Below are positions 15,050 through 18,000 of a DNA stretch of 64,000 bases, piece after piece; the stretch's first letter is position 1, and every line of letters starts with the position of its first letter. The stretch is from the NCBI RefSeq assembly GCF_046105845.1, contig NZ_CP151004.1; one strand, given 5' to 3'. The stretch comes from Escherichia coli (lineage in GTDB: Bacteria; Pseudomonadota; Gammaproteobacteria; Enterobacterales; Enterobacteriaceae). The position numbers were made by a program.

Positions 15050-18000
15050 TAGTTTGTAAACCGTCCGGCACTCAATTGCCAAAAAGAAAAAAGCCAGCAG
15101 ATAATCACTGCTGGCGTGGCGATTAACACCAATACTCAGTCACACATGATGTCCGCAAATCAGTAGTCAGAATGACTCCCCTCCCACTGCATCAGTTCTT
15201 CAAGCATAGTTAATCGTTGTGGGACGCTTAACCAACGCAACCAGCACAACTTCGCTGTCGCGGTAAAATAGTGCTGATAAAACTGACGCATGGGGCACCT
15301 CCTTGCTTCATCGTTAGGAATTATTGACTTAATATAGGGAAAATAAAATTGCTGACTTTTGCGCAGGAGTTCCCCTTTTATGCCATCTGCTCGTCTGCAA
15401 CAACAGTTCATCCGCCTGTGGCAATGCTGCGAGGGTAAATCGCAGGACACGACGCTCAACGAACTGGCAGCGTTATTGAGCTGCTCGCGTCGTCATATGC
15501 GCACCCTGCTCAACACCATGCAGGATCGCGGCTGGCTGACGTGGGAAGCGGAAGTCGGGCGCGGCAAACGCTCGCGTCTGACGTTCCTCTATACCGGGCT
15601 GGCGCTTCAGCAACAGCGAGCAGAGGACCTGCTGGAGCAGGATCGTATCGATCAACTGGTGCAACTGGTTGGCGACAAAGCGGCTGTGCGGCAAATGTTG
15701 GTTTCTCATCTGGGACGCAGCTTCCGCCAGGGGCGGCACATCCTGCGCGTTCTCTACTATCGTCCGTTGCGTAATCTGCTGCCCGGCAGTGCATTGCGTC
15801 GTTCCGAAACCCATATCGCCCGGCAAATCTTCAGTTCGCTAACGCGCATAAATGAGGAAAATGGGGAACTGGAAGCGGACATCGCCCACCACTGGCAGCA
15901 AATTTCACCGCTTCACTGGCGTTTCTTTTTGCGTCCAGGAGTCCATTTTCATCATGGTCGTGAACTGGAAATGGACGACGTGATCGCCTCTTTAAAACGA
16001 ATCAATACGCTGCCGCTCTATTCGCATATTGCTGACATTGTGTCGCCGACACCCTGGACGCTGGATATCCATCTCACGCAACCGGACCGCTGGTTACCGT
16101 TACTGCTGGGGCAAGTTCCGGCGATGATCCTGCCGCGCGAATGGGAAACCCTCAGCAACTTTGCCAGCCATCCCATCGGAACGGGTCCGTATGCGGTGAT
16201 CCGCAACAGCACCAACCAACTGAAAATTCAGGCATTCGATGACTTCTTCGGTTATCGGGCATTAATCGACGAAGTTAACGTCTGGGTTCTGCCGGAAATT
16301 GCCGACGAGCCAGCCGGAGGTCTGATGCTCAAAGGTCCACAGGGCGAGGAAAAAGAGATTGAAAGCCGCCTGGAGGAAGGTTGCTACTATTTACTTTTCG
16401 ACAGCCGCACCCCTCGCGGGGCGAATCAGTCAGTAAGAGACTGGGTAAGCTATGTTCTCTCCCCCACCAACCTGGTCTATTTTGCCGAAGAACAGTACCA
16501 GCAATTGTGGTTTCCGGCCTACGGAATGCTGCCGCGCTGGCATCATGCCCGCACGATACAGAGCGAAAAACCTGCCGGACTGGAAAGCCTCACCCTGACC
16601 TTTTATCAGGATCACAGTGAACATCGGGTTATTGCCGGGATCATGCAACGGATTCTGGCGACGCATCAGGTGACGCTTAACATCAATGAGATCAGCTACG
16701 ATCAATGGCATGCCGGAGAGATAGAAAGTGACATCTGGCTTAACAGCGCCAACTTTACGCTGCCGCTGGATTTTTCGCTGTTCGCGCACTTATGCGAGGT
16801 GCCGCTGCTCCAACACTGTATTCCGATCGACTGGCAAGCCGACGCCGCCCGCTGGCGCAATGGCGAAATAAACCTGGCGAACTGGTGCCAGCAACTGGTC
16901 GCCAGCAAAGCAATGGTGCCACTTATCCACCACTGGCTGATCATTCAGGGGCAACGCAGTATGCGCGGCCTGCGTATGAACACCCTCGGCTGGTTCGATT
17001 TTAAATCAGCGTGGTTTGCGCCGCCGGATCCAGAGTAGCTTGCGCCTTTTGGCGGTGATGAGCGCGTTTTTTATATTCAGACGGAATGAATAAAATACAT
17101 TACTTTTATATTTTCTCTGTTTTATGCATCGTCTGATTAGCGTCGCAAATAAGATTAAAGAAGGGGCATTCCAGCCCCTCTTTCATATTCTGAGTTAATC
17201 AATAACGGCGCAGTCTGGCCTTGTTCTGGCCGGAACGGTCAGCTTTTTCAGGTTAACCTCGCACAGGTCAGTCATACCATCTGCTATTGTTCATTTCAGC
17301 ATTGCTCAGGTCAACCTCGAGACGGTCAATACCACTAATGACAACCCCGTTAAAGTAAGCATTACTCAGATCAATGCACCCGGTCCTGGTGTTCTCTTTC
17401 ATCTGCAACTCCAGAGTAAATATCGCCTCATCGCCAATAAAAAAACTGACTCTTAACGTATCTCCTGACGAGAGTGAGGCCTTCGCGGCCATATTTTCCG
17501 GATCTATTGCATGTTCTTTGAGTTTATTAAAATTTATCAGCCAGTGGGTAAAATTATCACGCGCATCCCCATCGACAGCCCCGGTAAAGTATTTTGAGTA
17601 GTCATCACTATTATGGAAATAAAATGCATCCTTCAGAATTTGCCTTGCCGCAGTCTGGGAATGTTTATCTGACCGGAAGAGATTGCGTAACGTCTCCCAT
17701 AGCTCTTCAAAGATATTCATATTCTCGGACTTTTTGACCAGGTTAACCATCCTCATAATCTGAGAATGAGTAAGGCCTGGATCTTTAGTGGTATTACTAG
17801 CAGAGATACTAATCTGTTCTGGGTTTCTTACTTTCATGCTGATAGCTCCACTCTGAGTTAAAAACTCAGAATAAGCGTACTGAATAAGAATACTGTCAAA
17901 AATCGCTCATTCACGCAATAAGCCGTTGCATTACCGATTTTGACTGTGCTAAGGGATTCTTTCGGTTCAAAGCTTCCCAGCTATGCAAATACGTCCTTGA

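Follow-up and report, generated by a model that had tools for sequence, protein, structure and literature searches.

The Escherichia coli sequence analysed here (64,000 nucleotides of contig NZ_CP151004.1, referred to below as the window) carries a copy of sgrS, a small RNA gene that also encodes a protein. Under glucose-phosphate stress SgrR activates sgrS, and the transcript then acts in two ways: its 3' part (seed, small hairpin, terminator and U-tail), together with Hfq, pairs with and silences ptsG, manXYZ and other mRNAs, and its 5' part is the mRNA for the 43-aa protein SgrT, which blocks the PtsG transporter. A preliminary description of the window, made from the sequence alone, had drawn attention to a single base in the ribosome-binding region of sgrT (GGAGG in place of the GGGGG of K-12) and suggested that it could alter SgrT translation. 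The questions that this raises are whether the base is real, which of the two alleles is the unusual one and what the difference would mean for SgrT. The locus itself is a textbook one and the one-base difference is already explained in the literature, and in that sense there is nothing new: the base lies in the 5' arm of a published regulatory hairpin, and it is K-12 that has the odd allele.

The Rfam model RF00534 placed a full-length SgrS on the minus strand, at window 15086..15312 (227.6 bits, gathering threshold 37; E-value 1e-64), and the match was untruncated, covering model positions 1-232 of 232. The RNA is 227 nt, with its +1 at 15312 and its 3' end at 15086, which is exactly the interval and approximate length proposed in the preliminary description, where the strand was left unstated. 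Within its 5' part, translation revealed an ATG-initiated reading frame of 43 codons plus a stop (15160..15291, minus strand; RNA nt 22-153), whose 43-aa product, MRQFYQHYFTATAKLCWLRWLSVPQRLTMLEELMQWEGSHSDY, matched the Pfam SgrT family PF15894 (50 bits against a cutoff of 27); no NCBIfam model matched this peptide. The ATG is at nt 22 (window 15291), and the Shine-Dalgarno (SD) sequence AAGGAGGU, located in alignments at 15297..15304 on the minus strand (RNA nt 9-16), ends 5 nt before it. RefSeq annotates the nucleotide-identical locus of strain 118UI as sgrT (WP_001248768.1).

On the opposite strand, 67 bp from the sgrS +1, begins sgrR (15380..17038, plus strand; 552 aa), the activator of sgrS, which was identified by the SgrR equivalog NF010149 (1121.7 bits against a cutoff of 476) and by the Pfam domains SgrR_N and SBP_bac_5. 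The order leuD-sgrS-sgrR-TPP riboswitch-thiB is the same as in annotated E. coli genomes. The covariance model, the Pfam SgrT match, the divergent SgrR equivalog, the seed and the terminator all agree with the initial reading of a dual-function sgrS with an embedded sgrT. The reading of the locus as a chromosomal sgrS in an E. coli-like strain, transcribed from the minus strand away from sgrR and bearing the CFT073-type allele described below, has in our estimation a probability of about 0.9.

The 3' part of the RNA had the expected elements, all on the minus strand. The base-pairing seed GUGUGACUGAGUAUUGGUG (15127..15145; RNA nt 168-186) was invariant in 19 homologs; the preliminary description had quoted it as GTGTGACTGAGTATTGGTG, near the 3' end, and the quoted letters correspond to RNA nt 168-186, i.e., window 15145..15127. 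Folding of nt 167-227 gave a small hairpin before the terminator, UGGUG-UUAAU-CGCCA (15117..15131; RNA nt 182-196), which is part of the Hfq-binding module. The terminator scan identified the hairpin GCCAGCAG-UGAUUAU-CUGCUGGC (15093..15115; RNA nt 198-220), which has eight pairs, six of them G-C, and the tail TTTTTTCTTT. Alignment and the terminator scan placed the U-tract at 15081..15092, where it reads U6-C-U5 (U8 in K-12).

Between the two divergent genes, the interval 15313..15379 was assigned by conservation as the control region, with the putative sgrS promoter and SgrR-binding region; from established knowledge it would serve as the SgrR site. This intergenic sequence was strongly conserved from Escherichia to Citrobacter. 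A scan for the sigma-70 consensus did not detect the sgrS promoter, which is unsurprising where transcription depends on an activator. The promoter has a T at about -43 that was considered as a window-specific change, a reading rejected because the T is present also in E. coli PCN033 and most Escherichia species. The same scan found two sigma-70-like hexamer pairs opposite the 3' part of sgrS (15076..15105 and 15123..15150, plus strand), with 10/12 and 9/12 matches to the consensus only; shuffled sequence is expected to give 0.5 per region, and we treated these matches inside sgrS as chance.

To compare alleles, the window sgrS was aligned with those of a K-12 derivative, the uropathogenic (UPEC) strain 118UI and O157:H7 strain PA20. 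The polymorphic base is RNA nt 13 (window 15300, T on the plus strand), where the window has A and K-12 derivatives have G. It was the sole difference from K-12 in nt 1-104, and MG1655 matched the GGGGG query at 100%, so the preliminary description had the K-12 base right. The one-base description held for the 5' end; the rest of the RNA is not K-12-like, as 27 alignment positions differ in all (20 substitutions plus indels; 88.6% identity). Beyond nt 13, the differences were at nt 105 (synonymous), at nt 116 (giving G32E) and in a dense cluster at nt 132-227. This last block alters the SgrT C-terminus, the linker (nt 147-161), the small hairpin before the terminator (GGUG-UAAAAU-CACC in K-12), the terminator loop and the U-tract. 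SgrT has the C-terminus EGLMQWDDRNSES in K-12 and EELMQWEGSHSDY in the window (DDRNSES to EGSHSDY), and the window protein differs from the characterised K-12 protein at eight residues, all at position 32 or later, with residues 1-31 identical. The K-12 MG1655 locus nevertheless has the same 227-nt length, +1, seed, reading frame length, hairpin architecture and divergent sgrR. In K-12, setA lies downstream of sgrS, before leuD, and is co-transcribed by read-through, whereas in the window setA is absent and the leuD stop and the 3' end of sgrS are only 33 bp apart (15053..15085).

The window sgrS is 100% identical to that of E. coli 118UI and two bases from that of O157:H7 PA20, which has ATT for ATG at the sgrT start and C for T at nt 105 (synonymous), in the same setA-less context with espY2 past sgrR. 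Horler & Vanderpool (2009; PMC2760817) reported that the SgrS of K-12 is 88% identical to that of CFT073 or O157, and that CFT073 and O157 are 99% identical, two single-nucleotide changes apart, with the sgrT start abolished by one of the two. The relationships of CFT073 to K-12 and O157 in that report are those found for the window, and from this description (PMC2760817), along with the match to 118UI, we take the window allele to be the published CFT073-type allele. As the window retains the ATG, unlike O157:H7, SgrT can presumably be made from it. RefSeq assigns the PA20 sgrT (3522..3653 in that sequence, cf. window 15160..15291) the same protein as the ATG alleles, WP_001248768.1, despite the ATT; the literature regards O157 as SgrT-negative, and the annotation conflicts with it over ATT initiation. 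The SgrS of Salmonella enterica resembles the window in having no SD-occluding hairpin, GAGG in the SD and the same seed, and by experiment it yields more SgrT than that of K-12. Unlike the window RNA, it is 239 nt long, encodes an SgrT of 40 aa, carries one more stem-loop ahead of the terminator and has setA downstream.

The effect proposed for the base in the preliminary description, an altered SgrT translation, is likely to be relevant in the light of published experiments on the K-12 repeat (PMC2760806, PMC2760817). In K-12 the inverted repeat GGGGGTGCCCC, which forms the GGGGGUGCCCC hairpin, inhibits sgrT translation (Wadler & Vanderpool 2009, PMC2760806). Changing C to A or C to U in the 3' arm of this repeat made SgrT detectable and restored rescue and inducer exclusion (PMC2760806). 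This element, the small stem-loop just ahead of sgrT, was reported from only three of 15 E. coli strains, namely K-12, 53638 and 101.1, and other Escherichia and Shigella lacked it (PMC2760817). Local folds and this literature place the window counterpart of the K-12 repeat GGGGGUGCCCC at 15292..15302 on the minus strand (RNA nt 11-21), where it reads GGAGGUGCCCC and where A13 interrupts the 4-bp G:C stem of the K-12-type repeat.

Folding of nt 1-30 gave -6.7 kcal/mol for the window and -12.4 kcal/mol for K-12. When nascent transcripts of 30-110 nt were folded, opening nt 9-24 cost 4.5-6.3 kcal/mol in the window versus 7.4-11.6 kcal/mol in K-12, and the ribosome-binding site was cheaper to open in the window by 3-5 kcal/mol. 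The duplex of the SD with the anti-SD was -15.1 kcal/mol in the window and -14.2 kcal/mol in K-12. G13 in K-12 completes a GGGG/CCCC hairpin across the SD, one that is known to lower SgrT synthesis. Based on the published K-12 mutants and this folding, the window allele, which lacks this inhibitory hairpin and has a perfect AAGGAGGU SD, would have its SgrT translated better than in K-12. This advantage would be felt mainly on nascent transcripts, before a long-range helix covers the AUG, and thus we think that ribosome loading on sgrT is probably easier in the window allele than in K-12, chiefly co-transcriptionally.

The helix in question forms the basis of a first alternative, that A13 and G13 are neutral for SgrT output because the helix limits translation in every allele and the local SD hairpin adds little. 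Its 5' strand, at 15269..15294 on the minus strand (RNA nt 19-44), includes the sgrT AUG and was found in minimum free energy folds, the Rfam consensus and RNAalifold. Its 3' strand, at 15182..15206 on the minus strand (RNA nt 107-131), lies within the distal sgrT codons and was found in minimum free energy folds, the RNAalifold consensus and the nascent-transcript folds. In favor of neutrality, full-length equilibrium folding of the natural and swapped alleles left A13 and G13 nearly indistinguishable in SD and AUG accessibility (between alleles, P(unpaired) of the SD 0.36 versus 0.33; opening 11.4 versus 12.8 kcal/mol), because the long-range helix dominates these folds. Once at least 135 nt have been transcribed the helix is predicted to pair the AUG in both alleles, and the opening energies converge. 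The helix is present in both the Rfam consensus and the RNAalifold consensus of 19 homologs, with pairs retained through one-sided changes. The RNAalifold covariation was weak, as positions were mostly invariant or changed on one side, which is attributable to both strands being coding and neither proves nor disproves the helix.

Set against neutrality, SgrT became detectable and rescue possible in K-12 when the 3' arm of the local repeat was mutated (PMC2760806), although these mutants do not isolate the local hairpin cleanly because the mutated cytosines also edge the long-range helix. In addition, the nascent-transcript folds of the two alleles are 3-5 kcal/mol apart, and translation in bacteria is co-transcriptional. 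We consider neutrality possible but rather unlikely, and favor the reading in which the window allele is the better translated.

A second alternative holds that the whole CFT073-type haplotype is functionally shifted: with more SgrT, weaker Hfq-dependent riboregulation and no setA, it would rely on SgrT over base pairing. The absence of the SD hairpin and of setA is consistent with such a shift, and the Salmonella SgrS provides a precedent for SgrT-dominant rescue. The tail also fits this proposal, since only six consecutive U follow the terminator stem in the window before the C and U5, as against U8 in K-12, and work by the Aiba laboratory, derived on K-12 SgrS, set at least seven U as the requirement for stable Hfq binding (PMC5558911).

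Other elements of the riboregulatory arm are conserved. The seed (nt 168-186) was invariant in the 19 Escherichia, Salmonella and Citrobacter homologs, as was the terminator stem, and the small hairpin and terminator were kept via one-sided changes. The ptsG leader, which lies outside the window, was nearly invariant, with an identity of 99% or more in 5,423 of 5,424 genomes. Its predicted duplex with SgrS keeps the CUGAGUAU/UGGUG core and was -32.1 kcal/mol for the window versus -29.0 kcal/mol for K-12, and the intact seed and duplex speak against a shift. The U6-C tail is usual in other Escherichia species (with the exception of MOD1-EC7003) and in most Citrobacter. Moreover, an O157:H7 derivative with no sgrT ATG needed sgrS for growth on alpha-methylglucoside, and sgrS complemented the deletion (PMC13293527). 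The 3' half of sgrS in that derivative is the same as in the window, and the base-pairing arm therefore appears to work with a U6-C tail. The spread of this tail across genera and the functional O157 sgrS indicate its compatibility with function, and we regard a shift of the whole haplotype as doubtful.

The same doubt attaches to the broader proposal that the setA-less CFT073-type haplotype, found in about 40% of complete E. coli genomes, is a distinct glucose-phosphate stress module with an open SD, a diverged SgrT C-terminus, the U6-C tail and no SetA efflux pump. This is improbable in our estimation; were it true, such strains would weight the protein arm above the RNA arm. Identity over the whole gene defines two classes of sgrS: in 2,158 genomes it was 95% or more relative to the window, and in 3,241 it was 80-90%. 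Of the 5,426 complete E. coli genomes, setA was present in exactly 3,241, and the K-12-type sgrS likewise in 3,241; the 3' haplotype and setA thus appear to be linked as one haplotype, this being a match in totals only. The window-type 3' half is common to the setA-less Escherichia species and resembles that of Citrobacter, and the K-12-type 3' half accompanies setA and resembles that of Salmonella. Because each 3' half most resembles a different outgroup genus, the two haplotypes appear to be ancient polymorphisms, perhaps trans-species ones. MOD1-EC7003 had GGAGG together with a K-12-type 3' half, and therefore the state of the SD can be uncoupled from the 3' haplotype.

The frequency of each 5' form was determined by querying complete E. 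coli genomes (5,426 queried; counts among 5,399) for exact matches to 72-nt versions of the 5' region (-30..+42). The window form, GGAGG with ATG, was found in 3,351 genomes, the K-12 form, GGGGG with ATG, in 1,416 and the O157 form, GGAGG with ATT, in 312, leaving by subtraction about 320 with other 5' variants. The GGGGG form is therefore in the minority, and many laboratory derivatives were among the matches listed for it. These counts of 3,351, 1,416 and 312 update the 2009 figure of 3 of 15 strains (PMC2760817). An origin of GGAGG in faulty sequencing or in a mutation private to the strain, for which only its being one base could speak, is extremely improbable and was refuted by the occurrence of the same 72 nt in 3,351 complete genomes, of GGAGG with ATT in 312 more, and of A13 in other Escherichia species and Salmonella.

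The outgroup evidence came from 38 sgrS loci recovered with a degenerate seed pattern from one-genome-per-species contigs, in which E. fergusonii was not recovered. A13 was present in E. albertii, E. whittamii, Escherichia sp. E1V33, the SCPM-O-B-8794 lineage, Escherichia sp. MOD1-EC7003 and two Salmonella subspecies, and some Citrobacter had GGGG with its CCCC partner absent. Since A13 occurs in all the other sampled Escherichia species and in Salmonella, we conclude that it is ancestral in Escherichia and that G13 is derived. The change noticed in the preliminary description is thus real, and its implied direction is reversed: the base of the window is the majority and ancestral one, and K-12 is the outlier. 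In four other Escherichia species nt 11-21 of sgrS read GGAGGTGTCCC, with an extra C to T in what is the 3' arm of the K-12 repeat, and the SD hairpin is therefore even less formable in those species than in the window.

K-12 is in this respect atypical: its SD hairpin is a derived state, and about one in four complete genomes has it, many laboratory derivatives included. SgrT seemed to be poorly expressed owing to the K-12 SD hairpin, and most E. coli, the window among them, carry the open GGAGG. The balance between RNA and protein functions of SgrS that was inferred from K-12 may consequently not transfer to most natural isolates.

For 15000-18200 no complete E. coli genome exceeded 97.6% identity. 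The nearest genome was that of E. coli PCN033, 97.9% identical over 15 kb (window 9000..24200) with the divergence distributed as a mosaic: 92.6% identity at 16500-16999, in sgrR, and 100% at 21000-21499. The sgrR gene was about 93% identical to that of K-12. Given the 97.6% ceiling, a source in an Escherichia species other than E. coli was considered; it was rejected because the region, 97.9% identical to PCN033, reached only 89-94% identity with E. albertii, E. whittamii and three other Escherichia lineages. To judge from these identities, the region looks recombinogenic and the strain not closely represented among complete genomes. Between sgrR and the TPP riboswitch was a 189-aa ORF (17268..17837, minus strand) with no Pfam or NCBIfam match, which was 87% identical to the O157:H7 type III secretion effector EspY2; its position is empty in K-12 and occupied by a disrupted pentapeptide-repeat pseudogene in UPEC 118UI. 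Apart from SgrS, Rfam identified only two elements in the 64-kb window, both on the plus strand: the leucine operon leader at 10178..10327 (143.1 bits) and the TPP riboswitch, which precedes thiB, at 18078..18177 (64.6 bits).
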